From an uncultured bacterium (GTDB lineage Bacteria; Patescibacteriota; Minisyncoccia; Phycocordibacterales; Phycocordibacteraceae): a stretch of DNA of 64,000 nt. Below, one piece after another: positions 48,851-58,807 of this stretch; position 1 is the first letter of the stretch; each line of letters begins with the position of its first letter. The translations under genes and the position numbers were made by a program. The notes under the pieces were generated by a model that did no database searches, had not been told where the DNA came from, and saw only the letters and a list, made by a program, of their open reading frames with translations. The stretch is from the NCBI GenBank assembly GCA_903825105.1, contig CAIJZI010000008.1:8401-72400 (forward strand), given 5' to 3'.

Positions 48851-49159
48851 ATGGCAAAAAGATTTACCTTGAAGCCCTTGGGCGATCGGATTATCGTGAG
48901 ACCATCTGAAAAAGAAGGCGAGAAGAAGCTCGCTTCTGGAATTATTCTCCCCGAAGCGGCGAATAAAGAAAAACTTATAAAAGGTGAGGTCGTCGCTACC
49001 GGCCCGGGGCGGAAGAATGATGATGGGAAGCGCCTCGAGCTCGAAGTCGAGATCGGCGACACGGTATTTTTCAAAAAGCCGTGGGACGAGCCGATTAAAA
49101 TGGACGATGTCGAGTACTACATCCTCTCTGAATCAGACATTCTCGGCACTTTGGATTAA
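48851..49159 (+). CDS. groES: co-chaperonin GroES
   Basis: LKPLGDRIIV...GEVVATGPG; promoter TTGATT-N17-TATACT upstream; no CIRCE recognised. Confidence 0.95.
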   Translation: MAKRFTLKPLGDRIIVRPSEKEGEKKLASGIILPEAANKEKLIKGEVVATGPGRKNDDGKRLELEVEIGDTVFFKKPWDEPIKMDDVEYYILSESDILGTLD

Positions 49160-49211
49160 TTTTTTTATTTCTTAAACCTTAAACCTTAAACCTTATCCCT
49201 TAAACCTGTAA

Positions 49212-50849
<1,638 letters not shown>

Positions 50850-53689: not shown

Positions 53690-54214
53690 ATGAGTTATCA
53701 TACTATTCCACTAGGAAAGAAGTCGCCTGAAGTAGTCAACGCTGTTATCGAGATACCGAAAGGCGCTTCGGCGAAGTTTGAATATGACGAAGATCTTGAT
53801 GTTATCAAGCTTGACCGCGTGCTTCACTCAACGATGCACTACCCATTTGATTATGGCTTTATCCCCGAGACGCGGAGCGAAGACGGCGACCATCTCGATG
53901 TGCTCGTGATCGTCTCCGCGCCATTATTCCCCGGATGCATGGTCTCGGTGCGACCCATCGGTGCTATCGATATGGAGGATGAAGCAGGGAAGGATTGGAA
54001 GATAATCGCTGTGGCGAAGAAGGATCCGCGCGTGAAGAATGTTAAAACTATTGAAGATCTCGGCGAACATTTTAAAAAAGAGGTTCAGCACTTCTTCGAA
54101 GAATATAAAAAGCTTGAGGATAAATGGACGAAGATAAATGGCTGGCTTGGCTTAGACGAAGCGCACAAGATAATTAAAGAAGGGGCAGAGCGATTTGCAA
54201 AGGAAAAATATTAA
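53690..54214 (+). CDS. ppa: inorganic pyrophosphatase (family I)
   Basis: EIPKGASAKFEYD...DGDHLDVLV motifs. Confidence 0.92.
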   Translation: MSYHTIPLGKKSPEVVNAVIEIPKGASAKFEYDEDLDVIKLDRVLHSTMHYPFDYGFIPETRSEDGDHLDVLVIVSAPLFPGCMVSVRPIGAIDMEDEAGKDWKIIAVAKKDPRVKNVKTIEDLGEHFKKEVQHFFEEYKKLEDKWTKINGWLGLDEAHKIIKEGAERFAKEKY

Positions 54215-54282: not shown

Positions 54283-54684
54283 ATGGAAGGGATCAGTCGA
54301 GGAATGTGTTTAGAGATTTTCACGAATCCCCACGATCTTGAAATCGTTGTTTCCAAAGCAAAAAATTTCGATAAATGGGTCTTCGTTCTTACTCGTGGGC
54401 CGAGAGACAGACACAAGGTACTGTTGGAAGGAGGTTTTTTCAGACAGTCCAATGACGCGGTGGATACGATCAAAAAGATTCTCGAGGGAATTCTGGAATT
54501 CACCACAAAAGAGCTTAAAGACCCGAAGAGTCTCCTGACTGAGCTCATCAATTCTGATCATGAAGAAGTGATGGATCCTTCGAAGATTCTGACGCTCGAC
54601 CTGATCACTAGAATCGTCGAAGAACTTCAACAACATCAGACAGCGAGTACATACAAGATGATGGCTGCTGTTCCTGCTGTGTAA
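54283..54684 (+). CDS. hypothetical protein (133 aa)
   Basis: ORF followed by a terminator at 54707-54737; no recognisable domain. Confidence 0.4.
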   Translation: MEGISRGMCLEIFTNPHDLEIVVSKAKNFDKWVFVLTRGPRDRHKVLLEGGFFRQSNDAVDTIKKILEGILEFTTKELKDPKSLLTELINSDHEEVMDPSKILTLDLITRIVEELQQHQTASTYKMMAAVPAV

Positions 54685-54706
54685 ACAACTTCATTCAAAC
54701 ATCAAA

Positions 54707-54737
54707 TCGGCGACACGTGCGTGTCGCCGATTTTTTA
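54707..54737 (+). terminator. intrinsic terminator
   Basis: TCGGCGACACgtgcGTGTCGCCGATTTTTT. Confidence 0.75.
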
Positions 54738-55111
54738 CTACAGGATTCTGTCACGCGCCCTCCTAATTTCGCGGGGGATTCGAACCCTTTCGAATGGATT
54801 TTGGAGGATTGGAAATCAAGCAAGCAAAACGCTAATGAAACGAGATAATTAAAGGACTTATTAAAAAACTAACAATTCTCAATCGTACTCACAAACTATC
54901 AATTTTGGGCAACTTCTATCACTTTTTGGGCAACCGGAAATGCAACATTATTAGCGGGGAACAGTGCAGGCGTGAGTGATGAAAATTTTAAAACGCGACG
55001 AGACGGTGGTTTTTGTGTGGGTATGTTTATTGGTGACACATCATCACTCCGCCTCCGTTTTACTGCTTATCGTGAAATATGACTTCTGCCGTGAAATGAT
55101 AGTATTAACAT

Positions 55112-56755
55112 ATGGATGAGAATAAGTTGAGAGAAATTATAAGGTGTGCTCGCGAGAATGAGAATGTCGAGTTTAAGTCTGCATCAGACAGTTTTTCTGT
55201 CCTCGGAGGCGAAAGAGAGAATAAGAAATCTTTGTATGGATATTGTACAGCTATTGGTAACGAGGGAGGTGGGCGTATTGTTTTTGGAGTGACTGATGAA
55301 CGAGAGATTGTCGGAACGAAAGCTTTTCAAAATATTGAAGAGATCAGGTCTCAGATATACGAAAAAATGGGTGTTAAAATCGGTATTCAAGAATTTTTAC
55401 TACCGCAACGAGTTGTGGTTATTGATGTACCGGGACGGCAAATTGGTAAAATATTTACATTCCATAATCGGTATCTCACACGAGTTGGCGAAGAACTTGT
55501 AGAAATGAAACAGGATGAGATAGCTAAGATTCTTGCGGAGACGCAAGAGGATTTTTCAGCAAAATATTTGGATTTTGGATTAGAAGTGTTGGATCCGCAA
55601 GCTATAAAGAAAATGCGCGAATTATATGAGAAGAAGGCGTTAAGCACCACGAATGCTTCTAAAGCATCACTGACAGATGTTCAGTTTCTTTCCGATCTCG
55701 GGCTACTAAAGAACAATAAGATTAACAACTCAGCTTTGTTATTGCTTGGGACCACCGAATCATTACGTGATTTGCTTCCCGATGCAGAGATAATTTTTGA
55801 ATACAGAGTAAATCAAAATGATACACATTATTCCGACAGGTTGAATCTTCGCCAATCCCTAGTGTTTTCTTTGGATATTTTATGGGACAAAATAAATTCC
55901 CGTAACTTCGTGTCTCAATTACGTGAGCGCCTAATGCGGCGAGACATTCAGGCGTTTAACGAAGATGTAGTTCGTGAAGCCATGAATAATGCTGTGGTGC
56001 ATAGAGATTACCAAGCGCATAAATCAATATTCGTGCGCCAAGATAATACAAAGATAGTCTTCGAAAACCCGGGAGGTTTTATGCCAGGAATTACGCCGGA
56101 AAATATCTACAATCAAACTGCCTATAGAAATAGGCGACTGGCTGAATCGTTTGAAAAAATTGGTCTAGTTGAACGGTCTGGGCAGGGTGCGAATCTTATC
56201 TTCGAGAAGAATATTCGTGAAGGTAAAGGCATCCCAAAATATGAGACCACACAATATGATGTGTCGCTGTCTTTGTCAGCCCTTATTAAAGATGAAGAAA
56301 TCATTACCTATTTGGACGAGATAATTCAAAGCAAACAACTGGCTTTAACTGTTGATGACTTGGTGATTCTTGAAAAGATAAAGGATAGAACGTCCAAAGG
56401 GATAATGAAGAGAGATGTACAGAAATTTATTGATGCAGGGGTTGTTGTGTCCGACGGTGTTGGTAGGGGAGTGAAGTATTTTCTATCGAAGCAGTATTAT
56501 AAAGATCATGACAGACTTGGTGAATACACGAAGATTAAGGGACTGAGTCGGGCCGGTATCAAAGAACTAATTCTTGAACACCTTAATGCCAATAAGAAAG
56601 TAACCGCAAAGGAATGTCAGCAAATATCGCCAAACTTGAGCCCGAAAGACGTCGATAATATTTTACAAGAATTACGCAGAGATGAAAAAATCAAATTCAT
56701 TACATTTTCAGGAAACAAGAAGAATGGGCATTGGATTCTAATAGGTGAAAACTAG
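55112..56755 (+). CDS. Schlafen/AlbA_2 domain + HATPase_c_4 (RecG-C-like) putative ATP-dependent DNA-binding regulator or defence-type protein
   Basis: N-terminal YGYCTAIGNEGGGRIVFGV (AlbA_2-like); central NAVVHRDYQAHKSIFVRQDNTKIVFENPGG (HATPase_c_4 hallmark); AT-rich versus neighbours. Confidence 0.7.
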   Translation: MDENKLREIIRCARENENVEFKSASDSFSVLGGERENKKSLYGYCTAIGNEGGGRIVFGVTDEREIVGTKAFQNIEEIRSQIYEKMGVKIGIQEFLLPQRVVVIDVPGRQIGKIFTFHNRYLTRVGEELVEMKQDEIAKILAETQEDFSAKYLDFGLEVLDPQAIKKMRELYEKKALSTTNASKASLTDVQFLSDLGLLKNNKINNSALLLLGTTESLRDLLPDAEIIFEYRVNQNDTHYSDRLNLRQSLVFSLDILWDKINSRNFVSQLRERLMRRDIQAFNEDVVREAMNNAVVHRDYQAHKSIFVRQDNTKIVFENPGGFMPGITPENIYNQTAYRNRRLAESFEKIGLVERSGQGANLIFEKNIREGKGIPKYETTQYDVSLSLSALIKDEEIITYLDEIIQSKQLALTVDDLVILEKIKDRTSKGIMKRDVQKFIDAGVVVSDGVGRGVKYFLSKQYYKDHDRLGEYTKIKGLSRAGIKELILEHLNANKKVTAKECQQISPNLSPKDVDNILQELRRDEKIKFITFSGNKKNGHWILIGEN

Positions 56756-56889
56756 GAAGAAAATAGGAGGAAATATGAAAATTAATACGAAAAATAAGGA
56801 TACTATTTAGATTCTAATAGGTGAAAAATAGGAAGAAAAGTTGAGCGGAAATTAAGTCGACAGACCTTTCGGATTCCGATTTTCAATTT

Positions 56890-56981
56890 TGGCGGAGGGG
56901 GAGGGATTCGAACCCTCGATACGGTATTACCCGTATAGCGAGTTAGCAACCCGCCGCACTAGGCCTCTATGCGACCCCTCC
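56890..56981 (-). tRNA. tRNA-Ser (anticodon GCU), class II long variable arm, CCA encoded
   Basis: Hand-folded from the sequence: acceptor GGAGGGG/CCCCTCC, anticodon stem GCGGG/CTCGC, loop TTGCTAA, variable arm ATACGG/CCGTAT, T-arm GAGGG-TTCGAAT-CCCTC, discriminator G + CCA. Confidence 0.85.
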
Positions 56982-57005
56982 ATGCTTGTTTGAATTTTAA
57001 CAAAT

Positions 57006-57701
57006 TCAGTGCGCTAAAGCGAGCGGGATTATATTTTGTGCTCCAGCTTTTTTAAGTGCGTCAATTGCAGCTTGGAGTGTTGCGCCGGTTGTGAGGACAT
57101 CGTCGAGGATTATGAAAGTGCTTTTAGAAATTTCGTCATGGCTTATCCGCCTTCGTTCAAAGAACTTCGGCGTGACGAGGAATGCGTCTTTCATATTCTT
57201 TTCTCTTTCGTGGCGCGGGAGCGAGACTTGGGAGGTTGTTTCGCGGGTGCGCTCGAGGACATTCTCGACCAGCGCGCAGCCAAGCTGCTTGGCTGCGCGG
57301 TTCGCCACTTCTTCTACTTGATTATACCCGCGCTCTTTTTGGCGTTTTTTACCAAGCGGTATCGGAACCAAAACAAGGTTCGACCTTGAGGATTCGGATT
57401 TAAGGTCGAACCTTGTTTTTGGGAGATCATCGGCATCGTGCAGATATTCTAAAACTGCGAGCGAGAGGAGTTCGAAGGCGCGTCCATTCCCATGATATTT
57501 TGCTTCGTGGATTGCGGCGCGTACACGCTCGTCGTGATAGGGCAGGAGCGCGACCGTGCCGGGCCGAGTTTCTGGCACGAGCCGAGGCGCGACAAGAGCG
57601 AGGAACTCATCTGTTGAAATATCCCTCGACACGAGTTCGTCTGCACGAGGAGGAAAAATGAAATCTAAACACCTGTGGTGAATGAAATTGAACCAGCGCA
57701 T
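57006..57701 (-). CDS. comF: ComF-family phosphoribosyltransferase-domain protein
   Basis: C-terminal PRTase motif IILDDVLTTGATL. Confidence 0.7.
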   Translation of the reverse strand: MRWFNFIHHRCLDFIFPPRADELVSRDISTDEFLALVAPRLVPETRPGTVALLPYHDERVRAAIHEAKYHGNGRAFELLSLAVLEYLHDADDLPKTRFDLKSESSRSNLVLVPIPLGKKRQKERGYNQVEEVANRAAKQLGCALVENVLERTRETTSQVSLPRHEREKNMKDAFLVTPKFFERRRISHDEISKSTFIILDDVLTTGATLQAAIDALKKAGAQNIIPLALAH

Positions 57702-57721: not shown

Positions 57722-58807
57722 ATGTCCTTCCTCGGAACTATCTTTGGCGACAAAAAAGAAAAGAGCGTTCTCGGTATCGATATAGGCTCCTCATCTTTGA
57801 AGGTTGTGCAGCTGCGTAAAGAGCATGGTCAGGCAGTTCTCGAGACTTATGGCGAATTGTCGCTCGGGCCCTATGGCGGAGAAGAAGTGGGGCAGGCGAC
57901 GAATCTTTCCCCAGAACAAATTTCAGAAACATTAAAAGATCTTTTGCGCGAAGCGAAGGTGACGACCAAGAGTTGTGGCGTCTCGATACCGTTTACCCGT
58001 TCTCTGCTTACCCTCGCCACACTGCCGTATCGTGAAGATAAAAAAGAACAAAAGACTATTATAGAACTTGAAGCTAGAAAATATATACCGGTACCCGTGA
58101 GTGAAGTCCAGCTCGATTGGTTTGTAGTGCCTGACACAACGCACGCTTCTCCCGAGGACAATTCTGGAAAAAATAAAAAGATAGAAGTGCTTCTGGTCGC
58201 GGTTCATAATGATGAGCTCGCCATACTTCAAAATATCGTCGCAGGGGCTGGCCTTCAGGCGAGCTTTTATGAGATTGAGATATTTAGCACCATACGCGCA
58301 GTCGATGACGAGCCGATGAAGCCGGTGATGATTCTCGATGTGGGCGCCGCATCGACCAAGACCTATGTTATCGAACACGGTGTTGTCGCTTTTTCACATT
58401 CGATAAGTATCGGAAGCCAAGAGATTACTCGTGCGATCGCGATTTCTGGGAATGTGCCGATCGCGCAGGCAGAAATGTTAAAGAAGGAAGCAGGGATCGA
58501 AGGCGACGGGGCGCTTGGCTCTCCAGAATTTGTTTTCTCGCGCATTTTTGCTGAAGCGCGTCGCGTGCTCGTTCAATATGAGACAGCACATAAGAAATCA
58601 ATCACGGCGATTATATTAACGGGCGGTGGCGGCGTTACCAAAGAGCTTGGCGCGTATGCAAAAAACATTTTCTCGATAGATGTGCATGTCGCGAATCCAT
58701 TTGCGAAGACAAAAGCGCCGGCATTTATGAAATCAGTTCTCGAAAGTATCGGCCCCGAATTCGCCGTCGCTGTCGGCCTCGCTCTGCGAAAACTTGATGA
58801 GATATAA
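57722..58807 (+). CDS. pilM: type IV pilus assembly protein PilM (actin-like ATPase)
   Basis: LGIDIGSSSLKVVQL; 361 aa. Confidence 0.85.
   Translation: MSFLGTIFGDKKEKSVLGIDIGSSSLKVVQLRKEHGQAVLETYGELSLGPYGGEEVGQATNLSPEQISETLKDLLREAKVTTKSCGVSIPFTRSLLTLATLPYREDKKEQKTIIELEARKYIPVPVSEVQLDWFVVPDTTHASPEDNSGKNKKIEVLLVAVHNDELAILQNIVAGAGLQASFYEIEIFSTIRAVDDEPMKPVMILDVGAASTKTYVIEHGVVAFSHSISIGSQEITRAIAISGNVPIAQAEMLKKEAGIEGDGALGSPEFVFSRIFAEARRVLVQYETAHKKSITAIILTGGGGVTKELGAYAKNIFSIDVHVANPFAKTKAPAFMKSVLESIGPEFAVAVGLALRKLDEI

Follow-up and report, generated by a model that had tools for sequence, protein, structure and literature searches.

A probably foreign orphan Schlafen gene with paired, phased 3' repeat arrays at a variable tRNA-Ser(GCU) flank in a Patescibacteria genome

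The window analysed here is a stretch of 64,000 nt from contig CAIJZI010000008.1 (GenBank assembly GCA_903825105.1) of an uncultured bacterium. Our subject is a 2.1-kb AT-rich islet within it (54789-56889), which lies on the 3' side of a tRNA-Ser(GCU) gene and carries a single gene, encoding a 547-aa prokaryotic Schlafen protein, with two short arrays of tandem repeats at its 3' end (Table 1). An earlier reading made from the nucleotide letters without database searches (hereafter the sequence-only reading) had described the tRNA, a 14-nt copy of its T-arm region 2.1 kb away, the AT-rich segment between the two, and a defence-type gene with AlbA_2 and HATPase_c_4 domains, and all four observations are borne out. 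The tRNA is the only one that ARAGORN finds in the window, and it scores 51.3 bits with the Rfam tRNA model, against a gathering score of 29. The 14-nt core, GGGATTCGAACCCT, occurs exactly twice in the 64 kb (54775-54788 and 56903-56916), both times on the + strand, and thus forms a direct repeat on the tRNA 3' side; the chance expectation for such a match, allowing up to one mismatch, is 0.02 in shuffled sequences. A permissive local alignment of the kind that the sequence-only reading had suggested lengthens the similarity to ~35-40 nt (54767-54800 versus 56888-56928), taking in the tRNA 3' end (TTTgGCGG) and the base of the variable arm across a 7-nt deletion, but the extension is degenerate and its score is matched by 0.4% of random windows. 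The distal copy coincides with the position at which the GC content (fraction of guanine and cytosine) drops: it is 0.37-0.41 from ~54800 to 57000, between flanks of 0.44-0.56. The islet as a whole has a GC content of 0.384 against 0.474 for the window, and the Schlafen gene one of 0.39 against 0.47 in its surroundings, so that a tRNA border, a direct repeat of the tRNA 3' part and an atypical composition, all features of genomic islands, are found together.

Both domains of the protein match their Pfam families above the cut-offs: SLFN_AlbA_2 (AlbA_2, PF04326) at residues 15-132 (37.3 bits, cut-off 25.3) and HATPase_c_4 (PF13749) at residues 311-386 (43.6 bits, cut-off 26). The layout comprises an SLFN RNase domain (residues ~1-145), a GHKL ATPase domain (~284-390) and two winged helices (~395-543). 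The Ex4(E/D)xK motif, which is the catalytic motif of prokaryotic Schlafen RNases (PMC13056530), is present as E15-NENV-E20-F-K22, and across 33 aligned homologues neither E15 nor K22 varies, while E20 is at least 90% conserved. The GHKL motifs are likewise in place (E289/N293, NPGG at 319-322 and SGQG at 356-359), with E289, N293, G321-G322 and G357-Q358-G359 invariant among the same homologues. By sequence motif only, E289 and N293 correspond to E314 and N318 of RzAgo, the ligands of Mg and of the gamma-phosphate (bioRxiv 10.64898/2026.05.29.728809). The open reading frame (ORF) is full length and retains every residue that is invariant in the 33 homologues. The AlphaFold2 (AF2) model of the whole protein has a mean predicted confidence (pLDDT) of 87.5, and Foldseek matches it first to 3LMM, then to the N-domains of SLFN12/14/11/13/5 (probability 0.97-1.0) and to GHKL kinases, namely the PDK and CusS kinase cores. 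When residues 390-547 (158 aa) are modelled alone (pLDDT 85.8), two units of three helices and a wing (H-H-H-wing) are predicted that resemble MarR-type and tandem winged-helix proteins with a probability of ~1.0, though with weak E-values (3e-3 to 2e-2). With its SLFN domain, GHKL domain and two predicted winged helices, the protein is, on motifs and modelled fold, a prokaryotic Schlafen of the HisKinase-HTH (helix-turn-helix) class, which is among the commonest bacterial Schlafen layouts, accounts for 19.2% of prokaryotic Schlafens (PMC13056530) and corresponds to the "Schlatpase supradomain" with a C-terminal HTH in the naming of bioRxiv 10.64898/2026.05.29.728809. The gene is a further member of a known, recently described defence family. 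The comparison with PADLOC (2023) that the sequence-only reading had proposed does not identify a system: no model fits, and there are only partial matches to pAgo and pAgo-associated SIR2/PNTD models (E = 1e-11 to 1e-4), because the Schlatpase module is shared with these.

To place the islet among related genomes, we scanned one genome per species with PilM, whose gene lies across the tRNA from the islet, and obtained 78 loci, all from Patescibacteria (labelled mainly Paceibacteria, Kaiserbacteria or Parcubacteria), with a top identity of 77%. Judged from these flanking genes, the window genome is that of a Paceibacteria/Kaiserbacteria-like bacterium of the Candidate Phyla Radiation (CPR); an affiliation with Magasanikbacteria, hinted at by the names of Schlafen homologues, is ruled out by the same genes. 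The order tRNA-Ser(GCU)-comF-pilM-pilN-like is kept in most of the 78 relatives (dozens of species), but the other side of the tRNA is not. Neither the Schlafen gene nor the genes for an inorganic pyrophosphatase (PPase), a 133-aa protein (p133), Band7 and GH18 occur within 7 kb beyond the tRNA in any of the 78, so that none of the relatives carries the gene there in a native composition. In 6 of the 13 closest relatives, the GC content drops by at least 7 points in the first 1.5 kb past the tRNA 3' end. The cargo at this flank, some of it of defence type, varies: a type I/IIG methylase with an S subunit (L025), a KAP NTPase (L034), DUF4209 and DUF5677 proteins (L071), SET and DUF6632 proteins (L014), a deoxynucleoside kinase with a His_Phos_1 phosphatase (L020), or proteins without an assigned family (L019). 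In a sister clade the flank is stable, with NUDIX and malic enzyme genes. The distance from GroES/GroEL to the tRNA is 2.8-3.7 kb in five close relatives and 6.0 kb in the window, which indicates that the whole GroEL-to-tRNA interval is variable in the clade. Five contigs (four assemblies) from the same population are 100% identical to the window, and those that reach far enough (L001, L002, L005) all continue into the Schlafen gene. The low GC content, the absence of the gene in relatives and their own variable low-GC cargo together point to a foreign islet at a recombination-prone tRNA flank, and we conclude with high confidence that the Schlafen gene is a foreign orphan, located at a hot spot of variable content beyond the tRNA-Ser(GCU) 3' end. 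With this locus, defence-type cargo and a tRNA-linked hot spot are on record for the small CPR genomes.

The gene is called an orphan with reference to its relatives. Its nearest homologues, at 56-76% identity, belong to other CPR lineages, e.g. Magasanikbacteria, and most of them stand between the methylase and nuclease genes of restriction-modification operons, in which we denote the Schlafen gene X, the methylase gene M or mod, and the nuclease gene R or res; L-numbers denote loci of relatives. Type III operons of the order Mod-X-Res are found in L007-L009 and L010-L012. In L013 only the last 36 codons of mod remain ahead of X-Res (E = 2.5e-10), in L121 X-Res is preceded by short upstream fragments of a truncated mod, and in L123 an EcoRI-like methylase is followed by X and then by a GmrSD/HNH nuclease. 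Among the Magasanikbacteria sister contigs, L010 and L012 encode a full-length Mod of 652 aa and L011 a remnant of 105 aa, and the toxin-antitoxin genes that flank the three modules vary too; this variation shows ongoing decay of the M-X-R module. Stand-alone copies of X also exist, between tsaE and polA (L006) and adjoining recO (P0008). A tblastn search with Mod and Res of L007, L010, L013 and L121 returned nothing in the 64 kb at E < 1e-3, the islet flanks giving chance-level similarity. Since the ORF is intact and no mod or res homologue lies in the window, the gene is best described as an orphan whose clade members are usually placed between M and R. By eye, positions 56840-56889 resembled a res 5' end, but the similarity is not significant and a remnant was rejected. 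In 7 of 8 loci the GC content of X is lower than that of its surroundings by 6-14 points; in L007, itself a low-GC mobile element, the gap is 1 point. The L007-L009 element, whose Schlafen gene is 60% identical to that of the window, also has a large serine recombinase and PrimPol, and it is a plausible vehicle for the gene family in the same community; L008 comes from sample ERZ18625109, which is also a source of window-identical contigs. A metagenome scan for close Schlafen relatives added one partial locus only.

At the 3' end of the gene, 30 nt recur almost perfectly (56734-56763 and 56810-56839; 29/30 identical, spacing 76 nt, chance expectation 0.00). The sequence-only reading had rightly noticed this repeat, with slightly shifted coordinates and a spacing of 74 nt, and had regarded it as a re-duplicated gene end. 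A junction scar or a random tandem duplication is not what the comparison supports, because the element is a conserved one: all seven independent loci of the clade have a second copy of the final 20 nt of the gene at a distance of 66-77 nt past the first, 75-77 nt in five of them (shuffle p <= 0.005 in six loci, 0.03 in one). When five loci are aligned past the stop codon, each shows a second copy of its own gene end. Each repeated site is built from 11-bp units of the pattern TAG-N4-AAA-N, two or three in tandem. The first site lies over the final codons and the stop codon (in the window, array 1 covers the last codons and the TAG at 56753-56755), and the second, wherever another gene follows, ends directly at its start codon or shortly ahead of it; in L013 and L007, array 2 abuts or overlaps the start codon of res. 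In loci of 7-17 kb the units are confined to positions -13 to +91 relative to the stop codon and to the gene strand, and none was found elsewhere, e.g. in a 5' promoter. Array 1 and array 2 agree at 18.9/22 positions within a locus but at 14.8/22 between loci, and only 4 of 5040 permuted pairings score as well as the true one, whereas the spacer is poorly conserved between loci (11.8/30). The likeness of the two arrays within each locus, together with a barely conserved spacer, argues for co-selection or concerted evolution and not for a decaying duplicate. The 3' region is predicted to have no stable RNA fold (z = +0.54) and matches no Rfam family but the tRNA; between 56720 and 56895 there are direct repeats only, and no significant inverted repeat or fold. 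The spacer motif AAAATAAGGAT, partly common to other loci, is a possible -10-like element. The spacer of the window also holds an 11-codon ORF (MKINTKNKDTI) with a perfect AGGAGG ribosome-binding site, not conserved in other loci.

The arrays extend beyond the clade in kind, though not in sequence. Full-length relatives at 33-43% identity, most of them from viral contigs, carry arrays of their own that directly follow the stop codon, each with a lineage-specific unit (Table 1). Altogether, phased arrays with a period of 10, 11 or 21 bp lie at the stop codon in 14 of 16 full-length relatives at 33-100% identity; Tandem Repeats Finder (TRF) alone detects them in 12 of the 16, where the background rate predicts ~1.6. 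In a control set of other subfamilies at 22-31% identity, arrays are found in 2 of 19, which equals the background rate and speaks against a wider spread beyond the subfamily. In proteobacterial plasmid homologues at 22-24% identity, short repeated motifs are loosely clustered just past the stop codon; they are not tandem-phased and were not counted as arrays: a GCGATAGAA/CTATCG cluster ahead of a type I hsdM on an Aeromonas veronii IncU plasmid (L126, 4105-4320), and GAGCCAAA/TTTGGCGC clusters on two Rhizobiaceae plasmids (L127, L128). Repeats, iterons or operators are mentioned neither in PMC13056530 nor in bioRxiv 10.64898/2026.05.29.728809, and as far as these two papers show, the paired arrays and the position of the gene between M and R are undescribed.

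Table 1. Features of the islet and its surroundings (window coordinates), and repeat units of more distant loci
Feature	Position	Strand	Details
Distal islet border, degenerate direct copy of tRNA-Ser 3' part	54767-54800	+	exact core GGGATTCGAACCCT at 54775-54788
Islet leader, AT-rich, non-coding	54789-55111	+	longest ORF <=47 aa
Leader repeat TTTTGGGCAAC	54903-54913 and 54924-54934		21 bp apart
Leader repeat CGTGAAAT	within 55071-55101		two copies
Prokaryotic Schlafen gene ("Schlatpase-HTH"), intact, 547 aa	55112-56755	+	Pfam, motifs, AF2/Foldseek
Array 1, three tandem 11-bp units	56742-56774	+	TAGGTGAAAAC 56742-56752, TAGGAAGAAAA 56753-56763, TAGGAGGAAAT 56764-56774
Inter-array spacer	56775-56817	+	motif AAAATAAGGAT
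Spacer ORF with ribosome-binding site	56775-56810		11 codons
Array 2, two tandem 11-bp units	56818-56839	+	TAGGTGAAAAA 56818-56828, TAGGAAGAAAA 56829-56839
tRNA-Ser(GCU), encoded CCA end, proximal islet border	56890-56981	-	ARAGORN; Rfam
Promoter-like site for tRNA-Ser	57055-57028	-	
GroES/GroEL genes	48851-50849		
PPase gene	53690-54214		upstream side of islet
p133 gene	54283-54684		133 aa, no family match
Terminator hairpin behind p133	54704-54733		ends 41 nt before distal tRNA copy
comF	57006-57701	-	
pilM	57722-58807		
Lineage array, L093			ATTGCTTATA, four units
Lineage array, L094			AACTTTGAAC, four to five units
Lineage array, L095			CAACTTGCGTA, five units
Lineage array, L098			AACTTGGAACT, four units
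Lineage array, L099			AAAGGGCNGAT, 2 + 2 units 91 bp apart
Lineage array, L096			AGGGCTGTATTT, two pairs at 20-bp spacing
Lineage array, L100			GGGCCGCAAGA, two pairs at 21-bp spacing

To account for these observations, we propose that the segment 54789-56889 would be a horizontally acquired mini-island that entered by recombination at the tRNA 3' end and whose sole cargo is the Schlafen gene with its own 3' cis-element. That a foreign orphan Schlafen gene is present here together with a 3' array element that is conserved and functional is in our judgement the probable reading, and on repeat sequence and conservation the arrays are, with similar confidence, a good candidate for a selected protein-binding element. 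The putative binder may well be the Schlafen protein itself, but this part we hold more tentatively. Its tandem winged helices would bind the phased 11-bp units head-to-tail, a suggestion that follows from the helical phasing, the lineage-specific units and the occurrence of arrays only with this subfamily. The bound protein could gate the downstream gene (res in the M-X-R operons) by the logic of a controller protein, and/or could stay near its own locus. On a phage signal, an ATP-driven oligomer would cut tRNA and abort the infection; by analogy with RorSlfn5 and SLFN-pAgo, the protein would then be an ATP-switched, tRNA-cutting effector of abortive infection. The conserved lineage-specific DNA element offers a concrete candidate ligand for the HTH of the abundant Schlafen-GHKL proteins.

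Several observations weigh against this proposal. The arrays sit at the 3' end of the putative regulator gene, whereas operators normally lie 5' of the gene that they regulate; in the orphan loci there is no obvious gene for the arrays to regulate, and a consensus scan of the window finds no promoter between them. Their concerted evolution could stem from gene conversion and not from selection, and only 16 loci were sampled, 7 from the clade, mostly on metagenome or viral contigs. No member of the HTH architecture has a demonstrated function, trigger or phenotype, and two HisKinase-type Schlafens gave no defence in E. coli (PMC13056530). In that study (Taboada et al., Nat Microbiol 2026), candidate genes were cloned with 100-150 bp of upstream sequence and inclusion of the 3' flank is not stated; it is a speculative thought that missing 3' arrays contributed to the negative result for the two constructs. 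The leader repeats TTTTGGGCAAC and CGTGAAAT, which are unlike the 3' units, may be a promoter or operator. No obvious ribosome-binding site or promoter was found ahead of the Schlafen gene. The leader itself has no similarity to mod or res genes and no homologous DNA in related Schlafen loci.

As for how the islet arrived, the sequence-only reading had invoked a classical tRNA-targeting island, in which an element with an integrase inserts into the 3' end of tRNA-Ser, duplicates the attachment (att) core and later loses all but the Schlafen gene. We regard this as a serious possibility that falls a little short of an even chance. Its foreign origin, tRNA border and hot-spot position stand; integration by an integrase is unproven. 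The 14-nt repeat is in the correct orientation exactly at the composition boundary, the wider similarity reaches the tRNA 3' end, low-GC cargo varies at the same flank in relatives, and Schlafen homologues do travel on recombinase elements (L007-L009 with the large serine recombinase, L124 with an Xer-like integrase). In relatives, tRNA-Ser often has partial copies of its 3' end close by, in direct or inverted orientation, which suggests repeated recombination there; some of these copies flank no cargo, however, and because such copies are common the repeat is weaker evidence for one specific integration than it appears. As the sequence-only reading had already observed, no integrase remains: the islet has one gene only, no integrase or recombinase gene lies within 6 kb beyond it, and the 25 Pfam families seen most often in the flanks of 33 relatives include no integrase. 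The exact core is short, and indels interrupt its extended copy. A clean empty site was not recovered, either by exact-protein look-ups with PPase, p133 and comF or among the 78 PilM relatives, because none of these shares the PPase/p133 side; the comparison of the tRNA-Ser locus that the sequence-only reading had called for thus shows that the gene is absent, but from flanks that differ altogether. The GroEL-to-tRNA interval is rearranged among relatives, and the absence of PPase, p133, Band7 and GH18, which lie beyond the distal repeat, from the relatives' flanks implies that the variable region is larger than the proposed island.

The arrays, for their part, could act at the RNA level, as sites in the X-res transcript through which the Schlafen/AlbA RNA-binding domain or another protein couples or represses translation of the nuclease. 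The placement of array 1 over the stop codon of X and of array 2 at the res start in L013 and L007 would suit such a role, as would the restriction of all units to the coding strand, and the UAG-containing repeats recall the triplet-repeat sites that are bound by the TRAP protein of B. subtilis. The Schlafen domain, moreover, binds RNA (PMC13056530). Nevertheless we regard this as unlikely, since the array periods (10, 11 and 21-22 nt) agree with the helical repeat of DNA and are meaningless for single-stranded RNA, the protein has two predicted winged helices of DNA-binding type, the region is devoid of RNA structure, and the arrays persist in orphan loci without a downstream nuclease gene (the window, L006). 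That the gene is a non-functional remnant of a Mod-X-Res operon, with the repeats as inherited baggage, is consistent with the lack of mod and res homologues in the window, with the stepwise loss of mod in L013, L121 and L011, and with the missing ribosome-binding site and promoter; the full-length ORF with its invariant residues, the near-identity of the two arrays, the identical copies in several samples and the existence of other stand-alone copies make such decay very improbable. The weakest case, in our estimate, is for arrays that serve as recombination sites of a mobile single-gene cassette, like the attC sites of integrons. The gene and arrays do occur as a unit in at least five different contexts, the DNA homology between the window and L013 stops at array 2, and low GC goes along with the gene. 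Yet the repeats are direct, not imperfect inverted repeats of the attC type, no integron integrase or other recombinase is consistently linked to them, no matching site lies on the 5' side of the gene, and the units differ by lineage, which fits a co-evolving binding protein better than a shared recombinase. Both the RNA-level and the cassette readings fit the helical periodicity and direct orientation less well than DNA binding does.

A variant of the DNA-binding proposal assigns the arrays a role as docking sites that mark "self", where newly made protein would be loaded on its own locus as a head-to-tail, nuclease-silent oligomer. SLFN-pAgo is silenced in a guide-RNA filament, to which such an oligomer would be the counterpart on DNA, though a filament on DNA arrays is speculation; where X lies in an M-X-R operon, the docked protein would in addition control the nuclease gene. 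If the DNA were lost or competed away, or if a phage inactivated the linked restriction enzyme, an ATP-driven tetramer would be released and would cut tRNA. Such a mechanism, which we consider distinctly unlikely, would amount to a PrrC-like back-up of restriction that is built from Schlafen.

Comparison with known systems places the DNA-binding proposal in context. The published HisKinase-HTH Schlafens (PMC13056530) have the same N-terminal AlbA_2/SLFN domain with Ex4ExK, PF13749 GHKL domain with E...N and C-terminal HTH, and they likewise occur in variable or defence neighbourhoods, with a noted link to type I restriction-modification; what sets the gene described here apart is its CPR host, its phased 3' arrays and the placement of its clade within M-R operons of type III and other kinds. 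Among full-length relatives only DIP2311 of Corynebacterium diphtheriae (3LMM) has a solved structure; it has the same domain order (phmmer E = 9e-15, Foldseek E = 1e-25) at 18% identity and is itself uncharacterised. With SLFN-pAgo (RzAgo) the protein shares the Schlatpase module, but it has no Argonaute core or guide, and carries two winged helices as the sensor part. PrrC, a suicide nuclease that cuts tRNA under NTPase control, is encoded by a gene inserted into the EcoprrI type Ic locus and sets the precedent for a tRNase backing up restriction that a phage has disabled (PMC1484252, PMC3458546). The position between methylase and nuclease genes suggests that restriction may be coupled to a tRNA-cutting enzyme in the Schlafen clade also, which would make this the second known example after that of PrrC. 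The likeness is one of arrangement and not of homology: the PrrC fold is unrelated (ABC ATPase plus PrrC nuclease), its partner is of type I, it has no known repeat arrays, and the Schlafen gene of the window, for its part, has no restriction-modification partner. The C proteins of restriction-modification systems are small (~80 aa) and bind palindromic C-boxes; they too are HTH proteins encoded upstream of a nuclease gene with repeated operators between, but show no sequence relation. Nor do the iteron/incA-type arrays, which lie behind rep genes as helix-phased direct repeats 3' of the gene for their binder, the Rep iterons serving replication. From typical tRNA-associated islands, with which it has the tRNA border, the partial direct repeat and the atypical composition in common, the islet differs in its size, its single gene, the lack of an integrase and its short, degenerate repeat. 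The window also lacks the adjacent mod (N6_N4_Mtase) and res (ResIII plus RE_endonuc) genes of a type III Mod-X-Res operon, and its direct repeats set it apart from an integron attC cassette.

The tRNA locus shows further variation among the relatives L014-L090. In 11 of 47 related species tRNA-Ser(GCU) lies beside comF on the opposite strand, apparently inverted in place (e.g. L039 6256-6343, + strand, as against L089 6237-6324, - strand). An inverted copy of 12-18 nt of the T-arm/acceptor 3' strand occurs 45-95 nt past the tRNA end in 10 of 33 minus-strand loci, reaching 18 nt in L038, and direct partial copies are present in four relative loci. A sub-threshold Rfam match to the plastid psbI-rps4 3' untranslated region family (56893-56946, + strand; 52.4 bits, gathering score 68) is antisense to tRNA-Ser and was discarded; it most likely reflects tRNA-Ser sequence within that family's model and not a real element. 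On the other side of the islet, p133 is the next gene after PPase, and the same-sample contig L001 matches the window rightwards from 53516, while its leftmost 168 nt (L001 1-168) are unrelated, AT-rich sequence that replaces the end of the Band7 gene; the difference between Band7 and PPase is either a structural variant or an assembly chimera. Within comF, finally, there is a perfect 18-nt inverted repeat (AAAACAAGGTTCGACCTT, 57370-57387, and AAGGTCGAACCTTGTTTT, 57402-57419), with arms 14 nt apart.

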